Below are positions 1,641 through 62,519 of a DNA stretch of 64,000 nucleotides, piece after piece (position 1 is the first letter of the stretch; every line of letters begins with the position of its first letter). The stretch lies in assembly GCF_036971445.1 (NCBI RefSeq), contig NC_091473.1, forward strand, positions 81,716,001-81,780,000, written 5' to 3'. The translations under genes and the position numbers were made by a program. The notes below the pieces were generated by a model. It had not been told where the DNA came from, did no database searches, and saw only the letters and a program-made list of their open reading frames with translations. Source of the DNA: Narcine bancroftii (Eukaryota).

Positions 1641-1734
1641 TGGGAGTTTGTCTCTTGTGACGAAGACCGAGATTGAAAAAGCCTTCTGTCACCTTTCTCC
1701 CAGATCTACATTCACAGAGCCACCCCCTACCCTG

Positions 1735-4700: not shown

Positions 4701-7548
4701 CCTGCATTCAGCCCCTACCCTGCATTCAGCCCCTACCCTGCATTCAGCCCCTACCCTGCATTCAGCCCCTACCCTGCATTCAGCCCCTACCCTGCATTCA
4801 GCCCCTACCCTGCATTCAGCCCCTACCCTGCATTCAGCCCCTACCCTGCATTCAGCCCCTACCCTGCATTCAGCCCCTACCCTGCATTCAGCCCCTACCC
4901 TGCATTCAGCCCCTACCCTGCATTCAGCCCCTACCCTGCATTCAGCCCCTACCCTGCATTCAGCCCCTACCCTGCATTCAGCCCCTACCCTGCATTCAGC
5001 CCCTACCCTGCATTCAGCCCCTACCCTGCATTCAGCCCCTACCCTGCATTCAGCCCCTACCCTGCATTCAGCCCCTACCCTGCATTCAGCCCCTACCCTG
5101 CATTCAGCCCCTACCCTGCATTCAGCCCCTACCCTGCATTCAGCCCCTACCCTGCATTCAGCCCCTACCCTGCATTCAGCCCCTACCCTGCATTCAGCCC
5201 CTACCCTGCATTCAGCCCCTACCCTGCATTCAGCCCCTACCCTGCATTCAGCCCCTACCCTGCATTCAGCCCCTACCCTGCATTCAGCCCCTACCCTGCA
5301 TTCAGCCCCTACCCTGCATTCAGCCCCTACCCTGCATTCAGCCCCTACCCTGCATTCAGCCCCTACCCTGCATTCAGCCCCTACCCTGCATTCAGCCCCT
5401 ACCCTGCATTCAGCCCCTACCCTGCATTCAGCCCCTACCCTGCATTCAGCCCCTACCCTGCATTCAGCCCCTACCCTGCATTCAGCCCCTACCCTGCATT
5501 CAGCCCCTACCCTGCATTCAGCCCCTACCCTGCATTCAGCCCCTACCCTGCATTCAGCCCCTACCCTGCATTCAGCCCCTACCCTGCATTCAGCCCCTAC
5601 CCTGCATTCAGCCCCTACCCTGCATTCAGCCCCTACCCTGCATTCAGCCCCTACCCTGCATTCAGCCCCTACCCTGCATTCAGCCCCTACCCTGCATTCA
5701 GCCCCTACCCTGCATTCAGCCCCTACCCTGCATTCAGCCCCTACCCTGCATTCAGCCCCTACCCTGCATTCAGCCCCTACCCTGCATTCAGCCCCTACCC
5801 TGCATTCAGCCCCTACCCTGCATTCAGCCCCTACCCTGCATTCAGCCCCTACCCTGCATTCAGCCCCTACCCTGCATTCAGCCCCTACCCTGCATTCAGC
5901 CCCTACCCTGCATTCAGCCCCTACCCTGCATTCAGCCCCTACCCTGCATTCAGCCCCTACCCTGCATTCAGCCCCTACCCTGCATTCAGCCCCTACCCTG
6001 CATTCAGCCCCTACCCTGCATTCAGCCCCTACCCTGCATTCAGCCCCTACCCTGCATTCAGCCCCTACCCTGCATTCAGCCCCTACCCTGCATTCAGCCC
6101 CTACCCTGCATTCAGCCCCTACCCTGCATTCAGCCCCTACCCTGCATTCAGCCCCTACCCTGCATTCAGCCCCTACCCTGCATTCAGCCCCTACCCTGCA
6201 TTCAGCCCCTACCCTGCATTCAGCCCCTACCCTGCATTCAGCCCCTACCCTGCATTCAGCCCCTACCCTGCATTCAGCCCCTACCCTGCATTCAGCCCCT
6301 ACCCTGCATTCAGCCCCTACCCTGCATTCAGCCCCTACCCTGCATTCAGCCCCTACCCTGCATTCAGCCCCTACCCTGCATTCAGCCCCTACCCTGCATT
6401 CAGCCCCTACCCTGCATTCAGCCCCTACCCTGCATTCAGCCCCTACCCTGCATTCAGCCCCTACCCTGCATTCAGCCCCTACCCTGCATTCAGCCCCTAC
6501 CCTGCATTCAGCCCCTACCCTGCATTCAGCCCCTACCCTGCATTCAGCCCCTACCCTGCATTCAGCCCCTACCCTGCATTCAGCCCCTACCCTGCATTCA
6601 GCCCCTACCCTGCATTCAGCCCCTACCCTGCATTCAGCCCCTACCCTGCATTCAGCCCCTACCCTGCATTCAGCCCCTACCCTGCATTCAGCCCCTACCC
6701 TGCATTCAGCCCCTACCCTGCATTCAGCCCCTACCCTGCATTCAGCCCCTACCCTGCATTCAGCCCCTACCCTGCATTCAGCCCCTACCCTGCATTCAGC
6801 CCCTACCCTGCATTCAGCCCCTACCCTGCATTCAGCCCCTACCCTGCATTCAGCCCCTACCCTGCATTCAGCCCCTACCCTGCATTCAGCCCCTACCCTG
6901 CATTCAGCCCCTACCCTGCATTCAGCCCCTACCCTGCATTCAGCCCCTACCCTGCATTCAGCCCCTACCCTGCATTCAGCCCCTACCCTGCATTCAGCCC
7001 CTACCCTGCATTCAGCCCCTACCCTGCATTCAGCCCCTACCCTGCATTCAGCCCCTACCCTGCATTCAGCCCCTACCCTGCATTCAGCCCCTACCCTGCA
7101 TTCAGCCCCTACCCTGCATTCAGCCCCTACCCTGCATTCAGCCCCTACCCTGCATTCAGCCCCTACCCTGCATTCAGCCCCTACCCTGCATTCAGCCCCT
7201 ACCCTGCATTCAGCCCCTACCCTGCATTCAGCCCCTACCCTGCATTCAGCCCCTACCCTGCATTCAGCCCCTACCCTGCATTCAGCCCCTACCCTGCATT
7301 CAGCCCCTACCCTGCATTCAGCCCCTACCCTGCATTCAGCCCCTACCCTGCATTCAGCCCCTACCCTGCATTCAGCCCCTACCCTGCATTCAGCCCCTAC
7401 CCTGCATTCAGCCCCTACCCTGCATTCAGCCCCTACCCTGCATTCAGCCCCTACCCTGCATTCAGCCCCTACCCTGCATTCAGCCCCTACCCTGCATTCA
7501 GCCCCTACCCTGCATTCAGCCCCTACCCTGCATTCAGCCCCTACCCTG
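1735..7548. repeat. Perfect 18-bp minisatellite (CATTCAGCCCCTACCCTG) x323
   Basis: 5814 bp / 18 = 323 units; no variant unit seen by eye. Confidence 0.97.
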
Positions 7549-7886
7549 CATTCACAGAGCCACCCCCTACCCTGCATTCACAGAGCCACCCCCTACCCTG
7601 CATTCACAGAGCCACCCCCTACCCTGCATTCACAGAGCCACCCCCTACCCTGCATTCACAGAGCCACCCCCTACCCTGCATTCACAGAGCCACCCCCTAC
7701 CCTGCATTCACAGAGCCACCCCCTACCCTGCATTCACAGAGCCACCCCCTACCCTGCATTCACAGAGCCACCCCCTACCCTGCATTCACAGAGCCACCCC
7801 CTACCCTGCATTCACAGAGCCACCCCCTACCCTGCATTCACAGAGCCACCCCCTACCCTGCATTCACAGAGCCACCCCCTACCCTG
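7549..7886. repeat. 26-bp minisatellite (CATTCACAGAGCCACCCCCTACCCTG) x13; one more copy at 1709-1734
   Basis: 338 bp / 26 = 13 units; shares both ends of its unit with the 18-mer. Confidence 0.95.
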
Positions 7887-8075
7887 ATTCTCCCCTCTCC
7901 ACTCCTGTCTAATTATCACCTTTTGTCTGTTGGGCTGTGCTTTTCTCCTGCCCTTTCTTCCCTACTCCCCAGCCTTTTTTTCAGGCCTACATTTTGCTCA
8001 ATCCTTGAACATCCATAATGTATCTTTACATCCTATGGAAGCTGTGACACCAGTCAAGTTCCACCAGGATTGTTG
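7887..8075 (+). mobile_element. Penelope-like terminal repeat, inverted relative to 503-720
   Basis: Reverse-complement similarity, e.g. ccagcctttttttcaggcctac vs gtaggtgcctgaattgaaaggctgg and tatctttacatcctatggaagc vs gcttccatgggaggtaaagata. Confidence 0.6.
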
Positions 8076-9461: not shown

Positions 9462-9523
9462 GTCTAGACAAAAATCGCACGTAGGAACTTTTTCCAGATC
9501 AGATAAGATAGAAGAGACTGTAC

Positions 9524-9990
9524 CTTTCTCGTAAGCACAGGGACTGGAGCACAAGACTTCCATAGGCCTCAATGAATATAAATAAAGCCTTGGCACTTGT
9601 GCTAGGGTCAATAAATTTCTTTCTTGCTTCTACTGCAGTAAAAAGTTTCTCAGCAATCTGCTCAGGGAAGCCAATTAGTGAGTCGACGTGTTGTATATTG
9701 TCAGCTATAAAAGCAAGCACAACATCAAATAGTGACTTGGGAGAATAGCGAAGATTTCCTTCTTTTGTATAAGTGAAAACAATGTGATCAGTCCTGTAAG
9801 TATTTGGCTTGTCCCCATCTTCAATGCACAGATTAACAGTGAATCCCTTTTGAAACAGTCGCACTGCCTTGGATTTTCCAGTGGGCACTTTCAAACTCGA
9901 AGGACCATTTAACAGATGCAGCTGACCCTGTTCACGCACATAGATAGGTCCAAATTCAAATGCAGGATTTGTGTTGGTGAGCAAAGACAT
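9524..9990 (-). CDS. LRRC42: Leucine-rich repeat-containing protein 42, first coding exon (gene continues beyond the left edge)
   Basis: GPIYVREQGQLH...TDHIVFTYTKEGNLRYSPKSLF...DSLIGFPEQIAEKLF...EAYGSLVLQSLCLR matches the vertebrate LRRC42 N-terminus; acceptor AG at 10003-10002, donor GT at 9523-9522; synteny with HSPB11/DIO1/YIPF1. Confidence 0.93.
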
Positions 9991-10619
9991 TGGAATGCAC
10001 TCTGAAAAAGCAAGAAAGAAATAATTATATTAAAACTTACATTTCTGTTTTCCCTTAATATACAGAAGGCTACTCATCCCATCGAGTGTATGCTGGCTCT
10101 CAGAGTAGTCCCATTACATCACTTATTTTCCCATAATCTGTCCATCACCATATATGTCTATTAATTTACAAATCAGCACATTATTGGAATGTGGAAGGAC
10201 ACGCAAGTTCCTTGAGGAAACCCATGATATCACAAAGAGATTGTTCAATCTCCACAGCAACAGAAATCTGAATCAAATCCAGGTTGGTGAAGTTACCAGT
10301 CACTCTGCATGGAAAACCATGTTATTGAATATTTCCAATCTTTAACCTTCAAGTGCAAAACTTAAGAGTTTGATTCACACATTTAAAGGCAAGCTTTTAA
10401 AAGTGATATCCCCTAGTGACTATGATCCCATTGTTAGGAATTGAACATCAGTCATCTAACATCAACATTTAGAAAATAGTGAGTACATGGAAAAAAAAAT
10501 TCCATTGAACTGTACCTATGAGTTAAATTAAGGCATACCTTAAACACATGATAGCAAATGTCCACACATTGAAGATGGGTTATACCAGAAGGTGGTCCCA
10601 AATTACCTCTTTTTATGAA

Positions 10620-16384: not shown

Positions 16385-19300
16385 TTCTTTGGCTTGGCTT
16401 CGCGGACGAAGATTTATGGAGGGGGTAAATGTCCACGTCAGCTGCAGGCTCGTTTGTGGCTGACAAGTCCGATGCGGGACAGGCAGACACGGTTGCAGCG
16501 GCTGCAGGGGAAAATTTGTTGGTTGGGGTTGGGTGTTGGGTTTTTCCTCCTTTGCCTTTTGTCAGTGAGGTGGGCTCTGCGGTCTTCATCAAAGGAGGTT
16601 GCTGCCTGCCTAACTGTGAGGCGCCACGATGCACGGTTTGAGGCGAGATCAGCCCACTGGCGGTGGTCAATGGGGCAGGCACCAAGAGATTTCTTTAGGC
16701 AGTCCTTGTACCTTTTCTTTGGAGCACCTCTGTCACGGTGGCCAGTGGAGAGCTCGCCATATAACACGATCTTGGGAAGGCGATGGTCCTCCATTCTGGA
16801 GACGTGACCCATCCAGCGCAGCTGGATCTTCAGCAGCGTGGACTCGATGCTGTCGACCTCTGCCATCTCGAGTACTTCGACGTTAGGGGTGTAAGCGCTC
16901 CAATGGATGTTGAGGATGGAGCGGAGACAACGCTGGTGGAAGCGTTCTATGAGACGTAGGTGGTGCCGGTAGAGGACCCATGATTCGGAGCCGAACAGGA
17001 GTGTGGGTATGACAACGGCTCTGTATACGCTTATCTTTGTGAGGTTTTTCAGTTGGTTGTTTTTCCAGACTCTTTTGTGTAGTCTTCCAAAGGCGCTATT
17101 TGCCTTGGCGAGTCTGTTGTCTATCTCATTGTCGATCCTTGCATCTGATGAAATGGTGCAGCCGAGATAGGTAAACTGGTTGACCGTTTTGAGTTTTGTG
17201 TGCCCGATGGAGATGTGGGGGGGCTGGTAGTCATGGTGGGGAGCTGGCTGATGGAGGACCTCAGTTTTCTTCAGGCTGACTACCAGGCCAAACATTTTGG
17301 CAGTTTCCGCAAAGCAGGACGTCAAGCGCTGAAGAGCTGGCTCTGAATGGGCAACTAAAGCGGCATCATCTGCAAAGAGTAGTTCACGGACAAGTTTCTC
17401 TTGTGTCTTGGTGTGAGCATGCAGGCGCCTCAGATTGAAGAGACTGCCATCCGTGCGGTACCGGATGTAAACAGCGTCTTCATTGTTGGGGTCTTTCATG
17501 GCTTGGTTCAGCATCATGCTGAAGAAGATTGAAAAGAGGGTTGGTGCGAGAACGCAGCCTTGCTTCACGCCATTGTTAATGGAGAAGGGTTCGGAGAGCT
17601 CATTGCTGTATCTGACCCGACCTTGTTGGTTTTCATGCAGTTGGATAATCATGTTGAGGAACTTTGGGGGACATCCGATGCGCTCTAGTATTTGCCAAAG
17701 CCCTTTCCTGCTCACGGTGTCGAAGGCTTTGGTGAGGTCAACAAAGGTGATGTAGAGTCCTTTGTTTTGTTCTCTGCACTTTTCTTGGAGCTGTCTGAGG
17801 GCAAAGACCATGTCAGTGGTTCCTCTGTTTGCGCGAAAGCCGCACTGTGATTCTGGGAGAATATTCTCGGCGACACTAGGTATTATTCTATTTAGTAGAA
17901 TCCTAGCGAAGATTTTGCCTGCAATGGAGAGCAACGTGATTCCCCTGTAGTTTGAGCAGTCTGATTTCTCGCCTTTGTTTTTGTACAGGGTGATGATGGT
18001 GGCATCACGAAGATCCTGAGGCAGTTTACCTTGGTCCCAACAAAGCTTGAAAAACTCATGCAGTTTGGCATGCAGAGTTTTGCCGCCAGCCTTCCAGACT
18101 TCTGGGGGGATTCCATCCATACCTGCTGCTTTGCCACATTTCACTTGTTCGATTGCCTTATATGTCTCATCCAGGGTGGGAACCTCATCCAGCTCTAGCC
18201 TTAGGAGCTGTTGAGGGAGCTGGAGCAGGGCGGAATCTTGGACTGAGCGGTTGGCACTGAAAAGAGATTGGAAGTGTTCTGACCATCGGTTGAGGATGGA
18301 GATCTTGTCGCTGAGGAGGACTTTGCCGTCTGAGCTGCGCAGCGGGCTTTGGACTTGGGGTGAGGGGCCGTACACAGCCTTTAGAGCCTCGTAGAAACCC
18401 CTGAAGTCGCCAATGTCTGCGCTGAGCTGTGTTCGTTTGGCGAGGCTAGTCCACCACTCATTTTGGATCTCCCGGAGTTTACGCTGAAGATGGCTGCATG
18501 CGCGACGGAAGGCTTGTTTCTTCTCTGGACAGGACGGCTTTGTAAGGTGAGCCTGGTGGGCAGCTCGCTTCTTTGCCAGCAGCTCCTGGATTTCCTGGCT
18601 GTTTTCGTCGAACCAGTCCTTGTTTTTCCTGGAGGAGAAGCCCAGTACCTCTTCAGTGGATTGCAGTATGGTAGTCTTCAACTGATCCCAGAGGGTTTCA
18701 GGGGACGGGTCCGTGAGGCGGGTTGCATCGTCGAGCTTTGCTTTGAGGTTTGCCTGGAAGTTTCCTCTCGCTTCGTCTGACTGCAGGTTTCCAACATTGA
18801 ACCTCTTTCTGGGGGCTTTATTGTTCCTGGGCTTTGGTTTGAAGTGAAGGTTGAGCTTGCAGCGAACCAGCCGGTGGTCAGTGTGGCATTCCGCGCTAGG
18901 CATGACCCTGGTGTGGAGCACATCTCGTTTGTCACTTTCTCGCACCAGGATGTAGTCCAGGAGGTGCCAGTGTTTGGATCGGGGATGCATCCAGGTGGTC
19001 TTAAGGCTGTCCCTCTGCTGAAAAAGGGTGTTTGTAATGACAAGCCGCTGTTCTGCGCAGAGCTCCAACAGGAGGCGCCCATTGTCGTTGCACTTGCCGA
19101 CGCCATGCTTGCCCAGGATTCCTGGCCAGGTTTCTGAGTCTTTGCCGACACGAGCGTTGAAGTCGCCCAGGATGACAACCTTGTCGGCTGTAGGGGTACG
19201 TTGGATGAGGTTGCGCAGGTTGGTGTAGAACTTGTTCTTTTCTGCTGGTTCCGCCTGGAGGGTTGGAGCATAGACACTGATTAGGGTGATGTGACGCTTG

Positions 19301-20203
19301 TTTTGAAGTGGGAGTCGCATGGACATGATTCGGTCCGAGAGGCCTGTCGGAAGGTTTTCGAGTTTGGAGGCAATGAAGCTCTTGACCATGAAGCCTACAC
19401 CAGATAGGCGTCATTCATCCGAAGGCTTGCCAGACCAGTAGAGTGTGTAGCCCGCGCCGCGTTCTTGGAGGCTGCCTACATCTGCCAGGCGGACTTCACT
19501 GAGAGCGGCTATGTCGATGTCAAGTCTGAGGAGTTCATGTGCAATGAGGGCAGACCGACGTTCAGGTCGGTGGCTGTCAGCCTTGTCTAGCATGGTTCTG
19601 ATGTTCCAGCATGCTAGCTTGAGTTTGTGAGCATCTTTTGAGGGGGAGGACGTGGAGGGGGAGGACGTGGACCTGTCCTCGGGCCTGCGCAAAGGAGCTT
19701 TTAGGTGGAGTGCAGTGCGCGCAGTACTGGCCCCACCCTTTACACCCATGGTTCGTGTGCCGTGGCCGAGCAAGCTGGGACGTGGCAGCGAGGTCCTTGG
19801 GTCGTAGGTTTTATATCGGAGTGGCCTTCTCCTATGCAGGTTTCTTACCCGGGCTGGAGGGGCCTGCCTCCCCTCTTAGGTCGGTCCATACTGCCCGGAC
19901 CGGGGCCGAGGCCGCCGCAGCTCACCCTGTGCCTGGACTGGGGCCGCCGCCTCCCACTCTCAGCCCGGATCGGGGCCTTCGCCTGCCCCACTCGACCGAG
20001 GCCGGGGCCGCCGTCTCCCCCTTGCTCCTGCCCGGGTCGGGGCCGCCGCCGTCTACCCTTCGCCCGGACCGGGGCCGGGGCCGCTGCTGCTCTCCCTGTG
20101 CCCGGACTGGGGCCGCCGCCTCCCACTCCCTGTCCGGACCGTGGCCTCCGCCTGCCTCACTTGACTGAGGCCGGGGCCGCCGTCTCCCCCTTGCTCCTGC
20201 CCG
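16385..20203 (-). mobile_element. Near full-length RTE-clade LINE in HSPB11 intron 1
   Basis: Single ORF with APE endonuclease and RT (LLFADDAAL) plus a C-terminal CxxC...H motif; (GAA) tail at 16385; GC-rich repeated 5' region. Confidence 0.92.
16438..19773 (-). pseudogene. RTE APE-RT ORF with one in-frame TGA (19411-19413)
   Basis: ORFs 19411-19773 (LACWNIRTM...AALSEVR) and 16438-19389 are in the same frame, separated only by a TGA. Confidence 0.9.
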
Positions 20204-40793: not shown

Positions 40794-43700
40794 TGCAGTA
40801 GTGTATTGTGCTGATGGCTGGCTCTGCCCCCATCTGCTCACATATAACCCTGGTGTCCTGTCGAAACCCAGAACCCTTCTGAAGACTACTGTGAAACCCT
40901 GCTCATAGTTATAAGCTAATAAAAGCGTTTATTCTCCCTCCAGTTGTGAGTTTTTATTCGCACTACAATTTTATGAGCTTATTCCCTAAACGATGGAAGT
41001 GCTACTCAAGCCAGGGATGCTGCTGATCAACCCTCTGTCCCCTGACGCGGTTACATGAGGCAGCGACTGCTCGAGTCAGGAAAAAAGGACCTGACTAGCC
41101 ATGTTGAACTGGCCAAATTGTTGGAACATGCCAAGCTCGAGAACGACGACCTCAAAGCTAGCAAGCTTGCTCACCCAGGTGAACCCTTCCAAGGGCTGGC
41201 TGCTCCTGCTACCCCTGCCCTAACGACTGCCACTTCCCGTGCTAGAGAGTGCTTTTTCTGCGGCAAGAGCCAGCATTCCCGATCTCGTTGCCTGTAAAGA
41301 CTCTGTGTGTTCTAGCTATGGCAAGAAAGGGCATTGCGTGAGGGTTCGCAGCGCGAGGGGAAGCCCGGGAAAGTCCACGTCTGAACCACTCCCGGACCCA
41401 ATTCCAGTCCCGAGCTGTCTGCCCCAAATTCATGCGAACCCACTTGGTGTGCTACACGCCGATGGAGGGTGGCATTGACAGTGAGGAAATGGCGCAAAAA
41501 GGTTCGGTGGCCATCTTGCCGTGACCCAAATTCAAACTTGGCACCATCATCGTCAGAGGAGGAAGGAGGGCAGCCATCTTGCTGTGCTACAAGGTCAACA
41601 TCATCTTACCCACGCAGGGTAACCCATGACGGTGGGGGTCACTCGAGTGAAGAGCATGGTGTCTCCGGGGTCCTAGCCTTGATGGTCCTAGATCAGGACA
41701 GACCTCACCAGCTCAGCAACTGGATAGTGACTGTGAAGGTAAATGCCATTAAATGCCTAACTGACACAGGCTCTACTAAAAGCTTCATATACTTGATGAA
41801 TTGTGTGCTCTGGTGTTGTTGAGTCTGGACTTCCTGTGTCACCTGAAGTGTGACCTTGGACTATTCTGGTCCCCTCCCCCCTGTAACGGTTTGGAATGGA
41901 GGGTCCCTAAAATCAGAACCCACATGCAGCCTCTCCACACTGAATATCGATCCCCCACCTCTCTTCCCAAACCTGTCCTCGGACTGCAAATCTATTGCTA
42001 CCAGCACAGCAGACCGAGATTTTATAAAGACTGAGACACAATGTCTACTCAACGAAGGTATCATCAAACCTAGCTCCAGCCCGTGGTGAGCGCAAGTGGT
42101 AGTGGTGAAAGGGGAAAACATGTCCAGGCTAGTAATTGACTATAGCCAAACTATTAATCGGTACACACTCCTGGACGCATACCCCCTTCCTCGAATTTCA
42201 GACATGGTGAATGATATTGTGCAGTATCGGGTCTATTTGACCATCAACCTAAAAGCTGCTTATCACCAGCTGCCAATCCATTCTGAGGAACATCCATATA
42301 CGGCATTTGAGGCCAACAGTCATCTCTATCAATTCCAGAGGGTCCCTTTTGATATCACTAACAGGGTTTCTATCCTCCAGAGGCAGATGTACAGAATGGT
42401 GGATGAGTATTGGGCGAAGGCTTCATTCCCCTAACTCGCTAACATCACCATCTGCAGCCACACCTTGGAAGACCATGATGCCAACCTCCAGAGTTTTCTC
42501 CACGTGGTGAAAGCACTGAACCTTACTCTGACAAGTGTGTGTTCAGGACTAAACGTCTGGCTATCCTTGGCTACTTAGTGAATGGCATAATTGGCCCCGA
42601 TCCTGATAGGATGCGTCCCCTGTTAGAGCTCCCCATCCCCTGGACCACAAAGGCTTTGAGGAGATGTCTAGGATTTTTCTCATATTATGCCCAGTGGATC
42701 CTTCAATACGCTGATAAGGTTTGCCCTCTCTTAAAAGCCACTAATTTCCCTATCTCGCCTGAAGTCCAAATGGCTTTTAACTACCTCTGGAATCACATTA
42801 TGAAAGCCGCCATGCATGTGGTGGATGAGAATGTACTTTTCCAAGTGGAAAGCGATGTTTTGGACGCAGCCCTGGCTGCGACCCTCAACCAGGCTCAGAC
42901 ATTACAAGGCCACGAACTCCGGAACCCATCGGTGGAAAAGGAGGCTCAAGCCATTGTAGAAGCTGTGAGGCACTTGAGATACTACCTGGCTGGTAGGAAA
43001 TTTATGCTCCTCACTGACCAGCGCTCGGTCGCATTCATGTTTAATAATGTAAGAGGAGCAAAATCAAAAATGACAAAATTGCTACAATTTTGACATTGTC
43101 TATTGGCCAGGAGCCCTTAATACCCTGCAGATGTCTTATCCAGAGGAAGCTGTGCCTCTGCATACACCGGGCAACTGTGGTCTCTGCATAATGAGCTCTG
43201 CCAACCAGGGGTTACCCACATGGCTCATTTTGTCAAGGCCTGCAACCTGCCCTACTCCATGGAAGACGTCAGGGAAATGACCAGGTCTGCGAGGAGTGCA
43301 AGCTGCATTTCTACAGTCTCGCAAAGCTACACCTGATCAAGTCATCCAGGCTCTTTGAACGGCTCAGGGTTGATTTTAAGGGACCTCCCCTCCACGAACA
43401 GGAACACTTTCTTCCCATCATTGATGAGTACTCCCGCTTCTTGTTCACCATTCCATGTCCAGACACATCCACTTCGTCATTCATAAAGGCCCTAGATTCC
43501 ATTTTTGCCCTGTTCGGGTATCCCAGCTATATTCATAGCAACTGGGGCTCATCCTTTATGAGTGATGAGCTACATCAGTACCTGCTGGTGAGGGGCATCA
43601 AATCCAGCAGGACCACTACCCACAACCCCCAGGGGAATGGGCAGGTTGAAAAGGAGAATGCTATGGTCTGGAAGACTGTCAAACTGTTCCTGGTCAAAAG

Positions 43701-44525
43701 GCCTTCCAGACTCACGCTGGCAGGAAGTCCTCCCATTGGCACTCCATTCCATCTGGTTGATAGTATGTACCGCGACCAACGCTACTCCTCACGAGCTCCT
43801 ATTCAATTTTGAAAGAAGGTCAACATCGGGAACCACATTCCAAACCTGGCTCACCACTCCTGGTCCAGTCCTTCTCAGGAAGCACGTGAGGAGAAGCAAG
43901 ACTGACCCCCCACCCCAGTGGAAAGGGTGAAACTGCTCCATGCTAATCCCACATATGCCTATGTGGAGTACCCAATGGCAGAGAGGACACCGTCTCCATC
44001 AGGGACCTGGCACCCGCCGGAACAGAGGGTCTGTTGCCTCGTGCCCTGCGAGCCACCGAGCTCATTCTTGCCACCCCCAGTCAGGGCCTCAGGGGATCTG
44101 GTTCAGGAGTAAAGTGCATCACCCTCCACCATTGGGCCGGAGTCCCAGCCCACCTCTTTTCCCTCACAAGGGAACCAGGAGATCCAAGGAGCCCAAGGCC
44201 CCCTGGGACTAAGGTGCTCCACCAGGATCTCCAGAACCCCAGATCGCTTAAATCTGTAAGTAACTGTATATTTTTCAACCTTTTTTTTCCTGAACCCATG
44301 TTCTCTGTCTTCATTCACAGACCCTAAATTCTGCAGGAAGGGCTGAATGCAGTGAACTAGGATTCACTGGTCGTGTGTTGTGCCTCCCGGCTCCACCCCC
44401 ATCTGCTCACATCTAACCCTAGTTTCCCACCTAAACCCAGAATCCTTCCAAAGACTACTGTGAGACCCTACCCATAGAGTTATAAGCTAATAAAAGCGTT
44501 TGTTCTCCCTCCAGTCGTGAGAGCT
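40794..44525 (+). mobile_element. Degenerate Gypsy LTR retrotransposon (LTRs ~40794-40967 and ~44348-44525)
   Basis: Gag CxxCxxxxH, protease DTGS, RT DYSQTINR..LDAYPLPRI, RNase H EKEAQAI/TDQRS, integrase NPQGNGQVEK; PPT GGAAGGGCTGAA before the 3' LTR; many stops and frameshifts. Confidence 0.88.
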
Positions 44526-45400
44526 TAAATAAAAGCTCTCCACACCCTCCCCTCAGCCATCCGTCGGTCACTTGGCCACCCGCTCCTTCCCTCCCCCCGG
44601 CTGTTTGTCGGTCGGGTTGGTTGCCCACCTCCCCGCACTTCGGGGCCGCTTTGGCCCGTCGCGACGGTGGCGCAATGTGGGACGAATGGCTGACTTCGTT
44701 TCGCATCATCTCTCATGCTCCGGGAAAATCAGCTGCGTGATGGATTAGAGTTAACAAGGCTGACCATTCATCCCACATTGTGCTGCCGAAGCGACCCGCT
44801 CTTCTCTGGTGGGAAGTATCTTTTAATTTTCATCGCCTACAAAGCGCTGATGTCACGCGGCTGCCTGCTTGGCCATTTGGCTCTTCACACTGATGGTCTG
44901 GGAAAAATTCCCGGCCCTGGACCCATTTAAAATTCCCGGGCCAATCTTTCTCACCACAGGTTCATGGGAAAATTTCCGGGGAATTTCCATTTTACAATAC
45001 GGTATGAAAAAGGGACTCCTTTTTGCTTCTTATTGTTTGGGGCACCGGCAATGCTCATGGTGACTCTTGCCTGACAGCAAATGTATATTACATTTTTACT
45101 GACATTACGTGATAATAAAAGGAACCTTTGAAATGAAGGGGTGATCCCAATTCTTGCTTATCCCTTTGAATCCATTTCAATGAGCATTATAAACAAATGC
45201 TGAAAAGTATGGATTGTTGAGCCTCAACAGGACGCATTCAAGTGCTTGCTTGTCCCTGCCTGTTCTGGATCTGAACTCACCATCATGTTGTACTTTTACC
45301 ATCGGTTGCACAGATTAAGTCGATTTGTTGAGCTAAAGGAAAATATGCACGTTACTTTTTTTGTACACGCCTCATGCAGTGAGATGCAAGTCATACATAC

Positions 45401-45731
45401 CTTTCGAGAAATCAAGCAGTCGATGTTCCTTGTGGTCAAAGTCGATGACTCGAGTATTGGGAGCAGAGGTGCCACTGAAAGCTTCATCTCCGGCATTTAT
45501 TAATAGATGTTGCACCACGACCTTCATAAACTTAAAACTGAAAAATGTTGGGCCCCAGTCTTCATATTTAAATTTTGAATTTTGTGTCATGGTGCTTTTC
45601 ATTCCAGCTTTCAGAACGATCTTCTTCAGGGTTTCAGGAAAGAGAAGCATCATAATTTTACCAATCAATGTCTGCAGAAAGATATAGACCAGAAGGCCCA
45701 AAGTCTTCAAGTACACAGTGAATTTCCCCAT
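45401..45731 (-). CDS. DIO1: DIO1 exon 1 (full protein 246 aa, Sec124)
   Basis: MGKFTVYLKTLGLLVYIFL...MTQNSKFKYEDWGPTFFSFKF...APNTRVI..; hydrophobic N-terminal anchor; donor G|GTATG; 331+144+200+66 = 741 nt in frame. Confidence 0.93.
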
Positions 45732-45759
45732 GTCCGCCTTGAACTGAACAGCAGCCTGT

Positions 45760-46530
45760 GAACTAAATACTGCTCCTCCTTTCCGTGCAACTCGATTCGA
45801 CACGGAAGGGTTGACGCTCCATCGGTTCGAAAGGTCCAGCCCATTTTATTGATCGTGAGCTCTCAGCTGACCCTGGGTCATTCTCCGTGAGTGCGCACAA
45901 AGAAAGACATCATCGCCTTCGTGGTTTTGGAGGGGGTGATCGCCCGCAAAATAGAAGCAGGGCGCGGCGCAGCTTGGCTGACCCATTGTTTGGGCCGAGC
46001 ACTGTTCAGCGTGGTCGTGGGGAATAGATTTGTCGGGGTGGATGAAGTTGCCTTTAAGGAGGACGTCGCCTTTAAGGAGGGGTGACTGGTGACGTGTCGT
46101 CCTCGTCCGGCCCGTGCTGCGCCATTGGGGTCCGACGTTGGGTGGAGAAGCAAAACGCCCCGCTGCCAGGAGGGAAGGAGTGTGAGCTCCTGCCCACGGT
46201 GAGGGAGGCCAGGGCCCGAGCCTTGTCAAGAAAGGGGTGGGTTTGTTTTTGGGGTGGGGGGGGGCGGCGTCGGTAATCCCCCTGCCCAGCCAGTCCCCCT
46301 CCCCTTGGGAAACCTCCCCGCCCAGCCACACTCTGCCCACTTGTTATTCGCCCCGCCCCGCGGTGCTGCCTCTGAGGCTGCTGACGGGGCACATTCTTAT
46401 CGAGGTGGAGACCGGTCGGTCGGGTTGACAGCCCTGACAGAGCCATCAGAGTTGAAGTGAAACTTGCCCCACTCGAGCACAGTGCAGGCTCTTCGGCCCT
46501 CGGCGTTGCTTCATGCCCCACTCAGCTTGC
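45760..46530. promoter_or_regulatory. CpG island / divergent DIO1-YIPF1 promoter
   Basis: CpG-dense; GC boxes (GGGGCGG ~46260, CCCCGCCCC ~46350); TGACGT at ~46090; lies between head-to-head genes. Confidence 0.7.
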
Positions 46531-48415: not shown

Positions 48416-50134
48416 CTTTGGCTTGGCTTTGCGGACGAAGATTTATGGAGGGGGTAAAAAGTCCACGTCAGCTGCAGGCTCGTTTGTGGCTGACAAGTCC
48501 AATGCGGGACAGGCAGACACGATTGCAGCGGTTGCAGGGGAAAATTGGTTGGTTGGGGTTGGGTGTTGGGTTTTTCCTCCTTTGCCTTTTGTCAGTGAGG
48601 TGGGCTCTGCGGTCTTCTTCAAAGGAGGTTGCTGCCCGCCAAACTGTGAGGCGCCAAGATGCACGGTTTGAGGCGTTATCAGCCCACTGGCGGTGGTCAA
48701 TGTGGCAGGCACCAAGAGATTTCTTTAGGCAGTCCTTGTACCTTTTCTTTGGTGCACCTCTGTCACGGTGGCCAGTGGAGAGCTGGCCATATAACACGAT
48801 CTTGGGAAGGCGATGGTCCTCCATTCTGGAGACGTGACCCATCCAGCGCAGCTGGATCTTCAGCAGCGTGGACTCGATGCTGTCGACCTCTGCCATCTCG
48901 AGTACTTCGACGTTAGGGATGTAAGCGCTCCAATGGATGTTGAGGATGGAGCGGAGACAACGCTGGTGGAAGCGTTCTAGGAGCCGTAGGTGGTGCCGGT
49001 AGAGGACCCATGATTCGGAGCCGAACAGGAGTGTGGTATGACAACGGCTCTGTATACGCTTATCTTTGTGAGGTTTTTCAGTTGGTTGTTTTTCCAGACT
49101 CTTTTGTGTAGTCTTCCAAAGGCGCTATTTGCCTTGGCGAGTCTGTTGTCTATCTCATTGTCGATCCTTGCATCTGATGAAATGGTGCAGCCGAGATAGG
49201 TAAACTGGTTGACCGTTTTGAGTTTTGTGTGCCCGATGGAGATGTGGGGGGGCTGGTAGTCATGGTGGGGAGCTGGCTGATGGAGGACCTCAGTTTTCTT
49301 CAGGCTGACTTCCAGGCCAAACATTTTGGCAGTTTCCGCAAAGCAGGACGTCAAGCGCTGAAGAACTGGCTCTGAATGGGCAACTAAAGCGGCATCGTCT
49401 GCAAAGAGTAGTTCACGGACAAAACTGCATGAGTTTTTCAAGCTTTGTTGGGACCAAGGTAAACTGCCTCAGGATCTTCGTGATGCCACCATCATCACCC
49501 TGTACAAAAACAAAGGCGAGAAATCAGACTGCTCAAACTACAGGGGAATCACGTTGCTCTCCATTGCAGGCAAAATCTTCGCTAGGATTCTACTAAATAG
49601 AATAATACCTAGTGTCACCGAGAATATTCTCCCAGAATCACAGTGCGGCTTTCGCGCAAACAGAGGAACCACTGACATGGTCTTTGCCCTCAGACAGCTC
49701 CAAGAAAAGTGCAGAGAACAAAACAAAGGACTCTACATCACCTTTGTTGACCTCACCAAAGCCTTCGACACCGTGAGCAGGAAAGGGCTTTGGCAAATAC
49801 TAGAGCGCATCGGATGTCCCCCAAAGTTCCTCAACATGATTATCCAACTGCACGAAAACCAACAAGGTCGGGTCAGATACAGCAATGAGCTCTCTGAACC
49901 CTTCTCCATTAACAATGGCGTGAAGCAAGGCTGTGTTCTCGCACCAACCCTCTTTTCAATCTTCTTCAGCATGATGCTGAACCAAGCCATGAAAGACCCC
50001 AACAATGAAGACGCTGTTTACATCCGGTACCGCACGGATGGTAGTCTCTTCAATCTGAGGCGCCTGCAAGCTCACACCAAGTCACAAGAGAAACTTGTCC
50101 GTGAACTACTCTTTGCAGACGATGCCGCTTTAGT
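48416..50134 (-). mobile_element. 5'-truncated, 5'-inverted RTE LINE
   Basis: 3' part on minus (48416-49422), upstream RT part on plus (~49420-50134); 12-bp TSD TACAACTGAATT at 48404-48415 and 50135-50146. Confidence 0.9.
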
Positions 50135-50224
50135 TACAACTGAATTATGATTCTTCTGTAAATTGACATAGGAAAATCTAAGGAAGGATTGCTTAGGGTG
50201 GAAGGGTTAGTGTAGCAGTTAGCA

Positions 50225-56985: not shown

Positions 56986-57477
56986 TATCTACTTTCTTCA
57001 CAATTATATATAAGGCACTAATAATCTGTTGAAGACTTTTTGCTCCTGCCGTTCTCTCCTTCTGGTTGTACCTACATTATTTTCTTATGAAATAAATAGA
57101 ATTAAGAGTTAAATTAGAATTAAAGTTATCATCTGAAAATGAGCAACATCTGAACACATTTTGCTTTGTGTTGCTTTGTTTAGACGGTGAACTGAATCTT
57201 GCAGGCTGTGGTAAGCAGCTTTCTTAGGTTGCCCATCTTCAGACATGTGGAGCTGACAACTTTGAGCATTCTATTCTCCATTTTGCTTCTGTCAAAGCTT
57301 GTCAAAAATGTCTTCGAGGCAGGACCTTGCACAAGTCCAGAAGTAAAGTCATAACAACAAACTGCCTTGAGGGTGCAAAGGGCCAGCAAGATGGCCCAGC
57401 TACACATGGCCTGAACCAGTATAGTTGTTTGAGAACAATGGGCAGAAAATGTGGTCCAGTATATTTTGCAATATATG

Positions 57478-60400
57478 TGATGCACGATCAATTACTCAAA
57501 GACTGAAGTTGCCGAGACTGAAGGCTTTTATTTACAAGAGATGGACAGTATCCCTGTGCTGGTCATTCACACTGACCCAGACTCAAACTGTGGGAAGGCT
57601 TGTGACATGACAGCCTTTATGGGGGGAGAAAAGTGGAGGAGTCACGATCCGGCCATTGAGAGCAAGGTCAACTAGGAAAGGTATGACATTTAGAGATGGC
57701 ATACAAATGTACACAATAGTGGTTTCACTACATTCACCCCTTCTTTTTAAAAGGAAGTCCTGGATGGGGGGGGAAGGTGTGTGGTTATCCACCCCTCCTA
57801 AGTTCAGTTGGTCTGGCAGTCTTTTTTGGCATTGTGACTGGTGAGTCCCCATCCAGGGGTCTGTGATAGCCTTTGCGGTTTTGGCTGGTCCATCCTGCTT
57901 GGCCTGGCTGGAGTGCTTGGCTGAGTCAGGTGGGTTGTGGAGGGGGTGTGTGTGTCAACTGTCAGCTTGGCCAGGGTGGTGAGCATTGGAAGGTGGGCCC
58001 TGGAGAGCTGTGGCGGGGGGGGGGAGGGTGGGGTGGTTCAGATGCTCCCACATGTGTCAGGTGCTGGAGAGACACTGGGTCCTTGCACCCATCCGGGAAA
58101 GCCACATAGGCGTACTGTGGGTTCGTGTGGAGCAGCTGGACCCTCTCGACTAGAGGGTCAGACGTGTGTTTTTATGTCTATGGAGTATACCATCCCCGGG
58201 GACATCAGCCAGGTAGGTAAGGTGGTTCCTGACGCCGATCACTTGGGGAATAAAAAACATTCTCTTATGAGGTGTTTCGTTGGTGGCTGTACACAGGAGG
58301 GAGCGGATCGTCTGGAGGGCTTCTGCGAGAACCTCTTGCCAGTGGGGGGCAGGGAGGCCCTTGGACTTTAAGGCCAGTACTGCCTTCCAGACTGTGCTGT
58401 TCTTCTGCTGCACCTGGTGGTCTGGCTAGAGGTGATGCCCTTGGACAGCAAATATTGACACAGCTCGTCGCTCATGAAGGACGAATCCCTATCACTGTGG
58501 ACATAGCAAGGGTATTTGATAATGGTGAACAGATTGTACAGAGTCTTTATGACGGTAGGTGCAGTCATGTCCAGGGAGGGGATGGCAAAGGGGAACTGTG
58601 AGTTCTCATCAATGATGTTGATGAAGTACATGTTGCAGTTCATGGAGGATAGGGGTACTTTGAAGTCCATGCTTAGACGTTCAATGAGGTGAGTAGCCTT
58701 AATCAGGTGTGTCCGGTCGGCCAGGTAGAAACGCGGTTTGCACTCTGCGCAGACCCAGGAATTTCTGGCTAGTGTCCTGATGTCCTCAGTGGAGTAGGGG
58801 AGATTACAGGCCTTGATGAAGGGGAAAAAAATGGGTGATCCCGGGGTGGCAGAGGTCATTGTGTATGTCTGGAGGTGGTCCATCTGCGCACTGACTTAAG
58901 TCCCCCAAGCCAGGGCATCCGAGGGCTGGTTGAGCTTTCTGGGCCAGTACTGTATGTCATAATTGTAGGTGGAGAGCACGATTCTACTCCAGAGAATTTT
59001 AACCATTTTTGATTTTCTCCCACTACTGGTTGTTGAACATGAAGGCGACTGCCTGTTGGTCGATCAGTAGGGTAAAATGCTTACTGGCGAGAGAATGTCT
59101 CCAGTGCCATACCACTTCAACGATAGTCTGGGCCTCCTTCTTGATGGAAGAGTGTTGGATCTCGAGGCCCTAGGAGGTGCGTGAAAAAGTGCTACTAGCC
59201 TGCCCATCTGGTTAAGTCTGGCAGTCAGGGCAAAGTCGGATGCATTGCTGTCCACCTGGAACAGGATGGATTCATCCACTGCGTGCATCGCAGCCTTTTC
59301 AATGTCAGCTTTGATACGGTTGAATGCCTCACAGGCTTCTGCCAACAGGGAAACCAGTGGCCCTGATGAGGGGCCAGGCCTTCTCCGCGTAGCTGGAGAT
59401 GCACTGAGTGTAATAAGAGAAAAACCCCAGCCACCTTTCAAGGCCTTGGGCTCTCCAGGGGCCTGTACACTGTTCTGTCACCCCCATCAGTGAGGAGGTG
59501 TCTCACCTCTGACCATAAATGCCCTGTCCCCGGCACTATATCGCTGACTTTTAGTGGCAACGGGCTTACAGTCAGGGTGAGATTGGTGAACTGGGGTGGA
59601 GGAGAGATCTGAAGCGTGGAGAGATCCCATGTTGGACACGATGATTGGGTTTGGGGCTGATGGTTGGCCATGTGGTTGGAGGAGGGCGGATGGTTTAAAA
59701 ACTGCTCATTACAGACCATGAGGGGAGGATGGCGCCCAACATGCTCTTCATGTTACACTGGAAATCTAATCCCAGTAGGATGGGTGCACATAGCTGTGGC
59801 AGTACAAGGAGTTTAAAGTCCCAGTATACCATGCTCCAGACAGTCAGTGTTACTGTCCAACTGCCACAAGTCTTTGCCGAGTGAGATTTGGATGTCATGG
59901 AGATCCGGTGGCTCATGGGCTTCACCCCGAGGAATAGTGCTGTACAATATCTGGGTGAATAAAGCTTTCTGTGCTTCCACTGTTGAATAGACAAGCGGTG
60001 GGACAGCCATTTACCTGGATGTCCATCATGGACCTGGAGAGTTAATAAGATCTGTCCTGATTGAGGGTTTCCAATGCCAGCATCAGTTTGTCTTCTGAGG
60101 AGTTCTATTGGCTGCTCGCAGCCCCCATGGTACGCACGCAGTCCTGTCATAGTTTGCTGGAAGAGAAGGGGAAGAAGACAGAAGTGATAGCATCGCAGGC
60201 GGTGGTCTTCATGGTGCATGTGTGTGGTTGTCCCAGGTCCATGGAAGTGACGGTGGACGTGATGGCTGCCCCCACTTGCACGTGGCGCTGCTGGAACTTG
60301 GGATTGGTTTGGACTTGCAGAGCTTCACAAAGTGTCCTTCCCACAGTTGGAGCATGTGTGGTCCCTGCCAGGACAGTGTTTCCTCGGGTGCTTAGCCTGC

Positions 60401-61363
60401 CTGTAGAAGTAGCACTTCGGGTGGTCACTAATGGCAGTTGTGGTCAGTTCAGAGTGGGAGGAGGCTTGCAATCCCACCTCCCAAGATGGCAGCTCCCATG
60501 TTCACCACGAGGCAGCCACGTGTTCACTGGAGAAGTTTTGGATGGCTACCTCGAGAGTGTTCACCATTTTGATGGTTTGAGGTATGCTCATTTGTCTTTG
60601 TTTGAGTAGCCTCTGCCACATGCAGTTGGAGCGGATGCCTGTTATACAGGCGTCTCTGATCAGTAGCTGTGTGTGGTGTTCTGCACTTACAGCCTGACAG
60701 TTTTGCAGTCCTTTGCAAGCTCCTGCAGTGCTCTGATTAAGTCGTTGAAAGTTTTCCCCCAATTGCTGCCTGCGTGAGTGGAGTACATACCATGCGTAGA
60801 CCTCGTTCACCTGGACTTTATACTGATCCTTCAGGGAGTCCATTGCAGCTCAGTACGTCTGGCAGTCCCAGACCATCTGGTAGACCCTGTGTCTGATATA
60901 CGAGTACAGCAGATGGAGCTTGTCCTTGTTATCCTGGATAGCTGCTGTGGAGGCTGTGAGGAACTTTTTGAAACAGCAGTGCCATAGCACAAACTTGTTG
61001 GCTGCCTCAAGTTCTCTTGGGTCGATTTCCAGGCGATCCAACTTCACTGTAATTGTTATATGGTTATGTACTTGTCCATGTTCCGAAAAAAATCTTGTAA
61101 ATAAAATTGATGCACGATCAATTACAGGAAGACTGGAGTTGCTGAGACTGAAGGCTTTTATATTACTAGAGATGGACAGCATCCCTGTGTTGGTCGCTCT
61201 CACTGACCCGGATTCGAACTTGGGGCAGGCTTGTGGCATGACGGCCTTTATGGGAGATAAAGGGGGAGGAGTCATGAGCCGGCCAGTGAGAGCAGGGTCA
61301 ACAAGGAAAGGCCATGACATTTACATATGGCATATAAATATATACAATAGTGGTTTCACCACA
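57478..61363 (-). mobile_element. Degenerate Gypsy LTR retrotransposon (5' LTR 61108-61363, 3' LTR 57478-57732)
   Basis: Paired LTRs TG...CA; 5-bp TSD ATATG at 57473-57477 and 61364-61368; PPT AAAAGAAGGGGTGAA; gag, RNase H and integrase (HSDRDSSFMS) remnants; RT largely deleted. Confidence 0.9.
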
Positions 61364-62519
61364 ATATGATTGAGGTTGGTATAATTTCGCCTCTTATTCA
61401 TAAAGTCTAAAATATTATTGATTGATTTTTATACTTTTGGTATTTATTCTTGAATGTGTTGAGGAAGTATCATTCATCTGCAATTCATAAGATGTGCAAA
61501 TTCACAATTTAGAAGAAGCTTCGGGCATGTGAATTTTCCACATTTCCATGGATTTCCACATTTTTCAAATCCAGTTCTGCATTTTTAAAATCCACTTCCG
61601 TGTTTTTAAAATCCACCTTCGTATTTTATCAGTACCTTCCCTGCCTTCTCTGACACCCTCTGCTTGTTCCGTGTGATGATAGGATCTTGCTCTGTCGACT
61701 TTGGCTGCCACATTTCATGCAGTAGCACAGTGGTGGCACATCCCCATGCACCCCCTCCCCATTGCAAAGAGTTTCCAAATTGTTTGCAATGCTATACCAC
61801 TTATGCCAGTGGTGCTCCCTCGTGTTTTAACCATAGCTCGAAAACCACGTGTGAAGAAATGATTGGGAAAGACTAATTGCTTTTAAGGTTAGCTGAAGAA
61901 AACCCCTGAGTAACAGATGGTTGCGGATTGGGCAGGGCTCTACCTGGTGACTGAGGACAGGTTGGACATGGGTTCTACCTGGGGATTGGGTGCAGATTGG
62001 ATAGGGCTAATGCCTGGTGATTGAGGACAGGTTGGGCAGGGGTGCTGCCTGGGGATTGGATGTGTTGGGCAAGGGCACTGCTTGGCATGCTGGGTGTTAG
62101 TTATGGGCAAATACTGCTTAGAGTCAGGAGAACCAGACATTCTGGTTTGACCATAGGTCTAGCAGGTAGTGCCTGGTGATGTGGAAGGGGCTTGGAGTCT
62201 GGGTACAGAAGATGGTAGTGTCTGTCTGATAGACTGTGCTCAGTGTAAAAAAATAAACAATTGATTTTGTTTAAAATGACTCATTTTTTAATGGCTTAAA
62301 TCTGGTAATTTTTTTGTACATTTTCAAAAAATTTTCAAATAGGGGCCACTGTGTGCCTCGCACAAGCACTCAGCTCTTTCCCATTTTTTTTTGACCTCAC
62401 ACATTCCTGAAGCATAAAACATCCACTGACTGCATTACAAATATTTCCTTTTTGATTTCTCAATGCTTTTTAAAAAATGTACAGTAAACTATTCAGCATA
62501 ACTTTGTTTTTGTTTGTAG

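Follow-up and report, generated by a model that had tools for sequence, protein, structure and literature searches.

A lineage of Ty3/Gypsy LTR retrotransposons, met here as two decayed elements in the genome of Narcine bancroftii, carries at the position of its primer-binding site (PBS) a sequence that pairs with a 9–19 base arm of its own LTR, and it is likely that the element's own RNA primes minus-strand DNA synthesis after a predicted cut at AAA|RCC. The duplex potential, its exact register, the covariation of its bases, the absence of a tRNA site and the structure of reverse-transcription by-products are all read directly from genomic copies.

Both elements lie in the window, by which we mean the whole 64,000-nucleotide stretch of NC_091473.1 (81,716,001 to 81,780,000) that was analysed. 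Element 2 belongs to family 2 and has the following features.

57478..61363, minus strand: element 2, a decayed Ty3/Gypsy LTR retrotransposon with the RT core deleted
61364-61368 and 57473-57477: target site duplication (TSD), CATAT
61108..61363, minus strand: 5' LTR, TG...CA
61247..61252, minus strand: TATA-like CATAAA in the 5' LTR, a putative promoter element
61217..61225, minus strand: Inr-like motif, the predicted transcription start, ~50 nt upstream of the arm (3' LTR copy at 57594-57586)
61156..61170, minus strand: LTR arm, 5' LTR copy, the predicted 3' part of the self-primer
61153..61155, minus strand: GCC immediately 3' of the arm, forming the AAA|RCC junction, the predicted cleavage site
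61107..61107, minus strand: single spacer base A between the LTR end and the PBS position
61093..61106, minus strand: PBS position, TTTTATTTACAAGA, complement of the LTR arm
61077..61079, minus strand: gag start codon, 14 nt past the PBS (gag of the clade begins MDK or MER)
58371..58895, minus strand: integrase core remnant (Pfam rve, E 8.9e-8)
57733..57748, minus strand: polypurine tract (PPT)
57478..57732, minus strand: 3' LTR
57526..57539, minus strand: LTR arm, 3' LTR copy, holding AATAAA

The layout given by the first-pass annotation, in which a 5' LTR ending GCATCA at 61108 is followed by one A and then by TTTTATTTACAAGA, with no TGG, was reproduced with its coordinates, as was the 14/14 complementarity of that sequence (61106-61093) to the 3' LTR (57539-57526). 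The two changes it had seen in the 5' LTR copy of the arm (61170-61156) resolve into one substitution and one inserted base. A match of 14 between PBS position and LTR was reached by only 1 of 100,000 LTR shuffles. The Ty3/Gypsy hallmarks (TG...CA LTRs, a TSD within 4–6 bp and a PPT) are present, and the two LTRs are identical at 219 of 254 positions. The CATAAA lies ~30 nt above the Inr-like motif, which is the spacing seen in family 3, whose by-products end at the Inr. Because the RT core of element 2 has been lost, with PWRAQ fused to the connection region, the DYSQTINR motif is visible within the window in element 1 only.

Element 1 represents family 1 on the plus strand.

40794..40967, plus strand: 5' LTR
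40911..40924, plus strand: LTR arm
40969..40982, plus strand: PBS position, complementary to its own arm at 13/14
42090..42428, plus strand: RT remnant with the DYSQTINR motif
44348..44521, plus strand: 3' LTR, end degraded, with its arm at 44482-44495

This element had been credited with an arm/PBS pair of its own, different from that of element 2; the distinct pair is there, but it falls one base short of full complementarity. In the U5 of family 1 (for example window 40917-40960, L035), a second GCTTTTATT could pair with AATAAAAGC within either LTR, and the alternative hairpin so formed might be a competitor of the arm-PBS pairing. No tRNA gene was found in the window, and none of the six loci examined had an Rfam match of note, whether a ribozyme or another known RNA.

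Other features were noted in the window. A long perfect 18-bp tandem array, with a 26-bp unit at its end, occupies 1700-7900 and gives rise to spurious 2,000-aa frames. A young LINE with a 990-aa open frame (16438-19410, minus strand), which we take to be RTE-like, has a second copy at 48450-50150, the 5' part of which is inverted (714 nt, 99%), a pattern like that of twin priming. Two minus-strand exons seem to us to resemble LRRC42 (9499-10029) and iodothyronine deiodinase 1 (45372-45845), and element 1 sits just downstream of the latter.

Copies elsewhere in the genome show that arm and PBS change together. Family 2 was found at 30 loci, of which 26 have a scorable LTR-PBS junction and 3 are LTR ends lacking a PBS; the window copy stands outside this count, since its insertion breaks the search pattern. 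At one stem pair the 26 copies read T-A in 18, C-G in 4, T-G in 2, C-A in 1 and otherwise in 1 (Fisher p 0.005, on copies that are non-independent). The terminal stem pair of family 1, scored in the 27 of 40 loci that preserve the junction, is A-T in 19, G-C in 5 and unpaired in 3, counts that are likewise non-independent because the copies are related. Two control families of the same genome, which we take from their RT motifs to be Mag-like and Gmr1-like, have tRNA-type PBSs (TGGCGACGAG in the Mag-like family) and self stems of 0–7 bp across 20 regions. The proposal that the pairing covaries is thus borne out by compensatory changes in both window families, and between families the sequences differ while pairing is kept.

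The closest RT matches come from rays and sharks, followed by corals, a damselfly and a tunicate. Neither a viral scan nor a metagenome scan that used a single protein gave any match; an alignment-driven scan returned 66 metagenome loci and 6 loci on MAG contigs, with the gag start in 37 and sufficient upstream DNA in 34. Pairing, whose absence from related families would have counted against the first-pass claim, was found in most: a perfect stem of 11–19 bp starts exactly one base past the LTR CA in 26 of these 34 testable distant loci, and the one-base spacer holds in all 26. The other loci comprise one with a 9-bp stem, six with imperfect or shifted stems and one, L132, with none. The same procedure applied at internal positions gave at least 11 bp in 3 of 1201 cases. 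Together with the compensatory changes and the tRNA-type PBSs of the controls, this supports the idea of a lineage-wide, tRNA-independent, covarying duplex at the position where priming would begin.

Twenty-one families were then compared, with the representatives picked from loci having stems. Each of stem pairs 4–14 occurs as 2–4 different Watson-Crick pairs, and the PBS begins with TGG in 0 of the 21 families, the TGG type being met in the control families. The first three pairs are almost always A-T, an exception being one family with GAAGA/TCTTC. At pair 10, 18 of 20 families have G-C, which places a conserved G ten bases before the predicted cut. RCC directly abuts the 3' end of the arm in families 2 and 3 and in 16 of 18 metagenome representatives. 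What is constant in the clade is the register, one base after CA, and the AAA|RCC junction. The loop from arm to PBS measures 24–87 nt, and the gag AUG lies 11–49 nt 3' of the duplex.

Folding of the LTR plus leader, which had been suggested as a check, gave a divided answer. The arm-to-PBS segments fold better than shuffles (z −2.0 to −3.9), with a mean pair probability of 0.88–0.98 for the arm-PBS duplex, whereas the folding energy of whole leaders is no better than that of shuffles (z −0.42, +0.26 and −0.95). Most of the 21 families are predicted to form a hairpin, usually RCC...GGY, that opens directly 3' of the arm; stems of at least 4 bp also arise in ~44% of shuffles, so that hairpin length alone is not beyond chance. 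A conserved duplex downstream of the PBS did not emerge.

Several further observations were made on these loci. In L131 (137-246), a PBS-like sequence stands twice in tandem, each copy after a CACA-A end. L167-L172 are contigs of clade retrotransposons inside prokaryote MAGs, several of which resemble circularly permuted elements; as animal retrotransposons in prokaryote MAGs, we ascribe them to host contamination. In the clade alignment (A1), the YxDD motif of the RT active site is mostly YLDN or YMDN, with YLDD in a few, and a literature search for 'YLDN' with 'retrotransposon' returned nothing relevant.

The ends of the putative primer can be approached through family 3, which is young (LTR pairs 98–100% identical) and has about 1,400–1,500 LTR-PBS junctions in the genome.

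LTR nt 189-204: family 3 arm
nt 254-269: family 3 PBS

At 111 family-3 places, LTR, A and PBS run on into the sequence that precedes the arm, read in reverse complement, and these aberrant insertions look like fossil reverse-transcription accidents. Typing covered 91 of the 111 places, with 94 junctions, and yielded 23 junctions of type A, 19 of type C, 49 of type B and 3 others. In type A, copying extended all the way to the first base of the LTR, leaving a mini-insert bounded by U3 at both ends; an exact 5-bp TSD flanks 19 of the 23, which so formed before integration. Inserts of types B and C with both ends in view carry a TSD in 11 of 12 cases.

In type C (18 of 19 independent), the over-run stopped part way and then jumped, mostly into internal sequence. 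End points fall at LTR nt 149–176 in 14 of the 18, with 7 at 149–156 and 0 at 141–148 (clustering p 1.8e-7 vs uniform; edge p 0.008); the outliers lie at 26, 92, 115 and 130. At LTR 150–153 stands an Inr-like GATCATT, 30 nt below a TATA-like TTAAAG and ~39 nt upstream of the arm, and since the over-run ends stop there, we infer that family-3 RNA starts at this point. Type B counts 37 independent internal jumps among its 49 junctions; here internal sequence in minus sense resumes within the LTR near the arm, with a median of 205 and with 32 of 37 restart points at 191–214. The predicted cut falls at 204|205, and a median of 205 is the expected end of strong-stop DNA if the template is cut after the arm. 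Since the breakpoints centre on the 3' end of the arm and the over-runs stop at the Inr ~39 bases upstream, the primer is probably released from an internal stretch of the RNA, unlike that of Tf1, which consists of the first RNA bases.

The run length of A within the arm also distinguishes the copies. The over-copied PBS carries the arm's 4 A in 111 vs 2 places, and about nine in ten of these PBS copies derive from a subfamily in which 16 of 21 copies carry 5 A in their ordinary PBS. The persistence of the 5-A form in those 16 copies points to a primer that does not efficiently rewrite the PBS in each cycle. The same by-product types were found for window families 1 and 2 (9 and ~6 loci, too few to map the start), the family-1 set coming from 16 exact pattern matches and one other that were examined; a one-mismatch pattern mostly matched normal LTRs. 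Over-run ends in family 1, where a start near 110 is predicted, fall at 137, 137, 127, 99 and 53, and the family-2 end is at 184; mapping of the start site by over-run ends thus holds for family 3 only. The by-product junction also occurs in one short-read contig set (X2, loose end at 1368).

Some LTRs bear related structures. In family-1 LTRs L402, L404, L405, L408-L413, L415 and L417, the arm is followed by TTGT or TTAT, the start of the U5 complement, and not by GCG, which looks like an inherited short priming-and-return event; a 27-nt version of this structure is present in family 3 (L244, L288, L299 and L305). Three family-3 copies stand in tandem at L191 (G000:C8:173.35 Mb) with a spacing of 5,512 bp, recalling the integrase-independent tandem Tf insertions described in PMC11042837.

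Taken as a mechanism, transcription would start ~40–50 nt upstream of the arm, and the arm of the RNA would pair with the PBS position. A cut 3' of the arm at AAA|RCC would follow, made by a nuclease that, to judge from Tf1, is probably the RNase H of the element; the freed capped fragment of ~55 nt, whole or trimmed, would then prime DNA synthesis, starting at the spacer base. Normally, plus-strand synthesis would copy the paired part only, with over-run leaving the aberrant insertions; a hairpin abutting the 5' side of the arm, predicted in family 3 from the putative start, could halt plus-strand copying at the PBS end. In families with AATAAA in the arm, a side role of the duplex would be to mask the poly(A) signal of the 5' LTR. 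A weak point of a single-cut model is the breadth of the restart points noted above, 17 of 37 of which lie inside the arm, a spread that one cut alone leaves unexplained. Types A and C would also result, with no covalent 55-nt primer, if a paused plus strand folded back or switched to a second RNA. The fullest form of the proposal, an independently evolved, animal-wide self-priming in non-chromovirus Gypsy elements, with a capped primer of ~55 nt cut out of the RNA interior at a sequence-specific AAA|RCC, its last 14–16 bases paired and often doubling as a poly(A) signal, and both of its ends readable from fossil accidents, is one that we advance tentatively, with belief a little short of even.

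An arm-sequence primer might instead act in trans, as a separate short LTR transcript (from solo LTRs, 3' LTRs or a second packaged RNA) with its 3' end trimmed to the duplex. All by-product classes need only such a primer with its 5' end at the start site, and in four runs the depth of LTR contigs far exceeds that of internal ones, although these are assembled contigs whose RNA status is a guess. The restart centre at 205 nonetheless fits a cut of the template itself, and the short loops, with a hairpin stacked on the 3' end of the arm in most families, are features of an intramolecular fold, so that we consider action in trans unlikely. Slightly less probable still is a reading in which some other primer is used and the duplex serves chiefly to mask the poly(A) signal of the 5' LTR or to regulate gag translation. 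The claim of a duplex over AATAAA holds in part: AATAAA or ATTAAA lies within the arm of 13 of 21 families, but one has a weak variant and seven have none of 13 poly(A) hexamers. The duplex can form at the 5' LTR only, and its high pair probability and closeness to the gag AUG would suit masking or translational control. Masking does not, however, call for a register of one base at the end of the LTR or predict the by-product break points, and in addition to the seven arms devoid of hexamers, two families carry the hexamer in the loop and one arm ends GAAGA/TCTTC. Masking of the poly(A) signal by the duplex is thus at most secondary. Cleavage by the poly(A) machinery was rejected, since restart points at or beyond 222 number only 4 of 37 and the signal is missing from 7 of 21 arms.

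That the complement is a functionless, neutral inverted duplication homogenised by template switching we regard as very improbable. Switching between arm and PBS is frequent (~7% of junctions) and could homogenise both, yet the mismatched PBS is mostly left uncorrected, no alternative primer site exists, and families that diverged deeply all keep to the register, with AAA|RCC and the G ten bases before the cut likewise conserved among them. Self-priming from the paired arm remains our preferred reading.

What is new here is the fossil by-product mapping of the primer in a young family and a clade-wide self-pairing for which we found no published description. Our search turned up no paper on self-priming in the clade; Repbase notes and subscription journals lay outside it and may mention it. 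At present, self-priming is regarded as characteristic of Tf1/sushi chromoviruses and of a small number of plant lineages. If the present reading is true, a large non-chromoviral clade of rays, sharks, corals, insects and tunicates with an internal primer widens the known ways in which reverse transcription starts. Such a clade is missed by LTR finders that demand a tRNA PBS, and it would escape silencing by tRNA fragments. The aberrant insertions offer a sequence-only route to RNA start and cut sites, and the mechanism is testable by end-sequencing.

The clade itself has the domain order protease-RT-RNase H-integrase in 15 polyproteins (Pfam), with remnants in the window. Neither a chromodomain nor a Tf2-type SH3 was found by Pfam in any of the 15, whereas sushi-like proteins do carry PF00385. 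It is monophyletic in the RT/RNase H tree (branch support 100/100, length 0.6), apart from nine fish chromodomain elements. A forced grouping with the chromovirus-like group gave p-AU 0.19 (44 of 100 rows used, with Tf1 outside the tree); as this sisterhood is not rejected, an independent origin of the clade's self-priming is plausible only. The clade may possibly correspond to Cigr-1 or to a MolGy clade. In its available text, PMC6238403 names the animal Gypsy clades Cigr-1 and MolGy1/2, without motifs or PBS, and the comparison literature also includes PMC3601003. No intact sushi-like element was found in the Narcine bancroftii genome, only a decayed sushi-type chromovirus RT fragment (L385:4118-4306, minus strand).

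Among known systems, the tRNA-primed animal Gypsy clades Mag/SURL, CsRN1 and Gmr1 share with this clade short LTRs, a 5-bp TSD, compact gag-pol, the lack of a chromodomain and their presence in the same genome. They differ in having a TGG-type tRNA PBS (tRNA-Trp for CsRN1, according to PMC2582038) and no self stem, and their RT is 22–30% identical to that of the clade. Dictyostelid Skipper and fungal GalEa also lack a TGG PBS, and unconventional priming has been proposed for them in PMC5006619 and PMC6934838, where Skipper is described with no complementary LTR region and GalEa with hairpins within the internal domain. For plant Tcn1 chromoviruses and for the Copia TAR lineage (Houba, Osr-1), as for the present clade, self-priming is predicted from LTR-PBS complementarity; they are plant elements of other lineages, and the available text of PMC6317226 describes no experimental or by-product evidence for them.

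The nearest likeness is to Tf1/Tf2 of Schizosaccharomyces pombe, to Tj1 and to the Tf1/sushi group of chromoviruses. Self-priming as a mechanism has precedent: the yeast element Tf1 is the case proven so far, and predictions of it exist for Tf1/sushi, Tcn1 and Copia TAR (PMC10085805, PMC6317226). Tf1/sushi elements are described as chromodomain-bearing, with three duplexes in the structure and with the RNA 5' end serving as self-primer (PMC10085805), and Tj1 of S. japonicus is described in the same way (PMC4600332). In these as in the clade, the PBS is complementary to the element's own 5' LTR RNA and not to a tRNA, and cleavage frees (in the clade, would free) the primer; in Tf1/sushi and Tj1, further duplexes flank the central one (PMC10085805, PMC4600332). 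In Tf1 the PBS is copied onto the plus-strand cDNA end (PMC11042837), a further likeness. The clade stands apart in its missing chromodomain and SH3, in an RT on its own long branch, and in an arm that usually ends AAA and often holds a poly(A) signal. Its predicted flanking helix is a local RCC...GGY hairpin where descriptions of Tf1/sushi give a three-duplex 'pretzel', and its primer arm apparently lies ~39 nt inside the RNA, judging from by-product ends in family 3, and not at the RNA 5' end. The clade probably functions like Tf1 yet falls outside Tf1/sushi membership.
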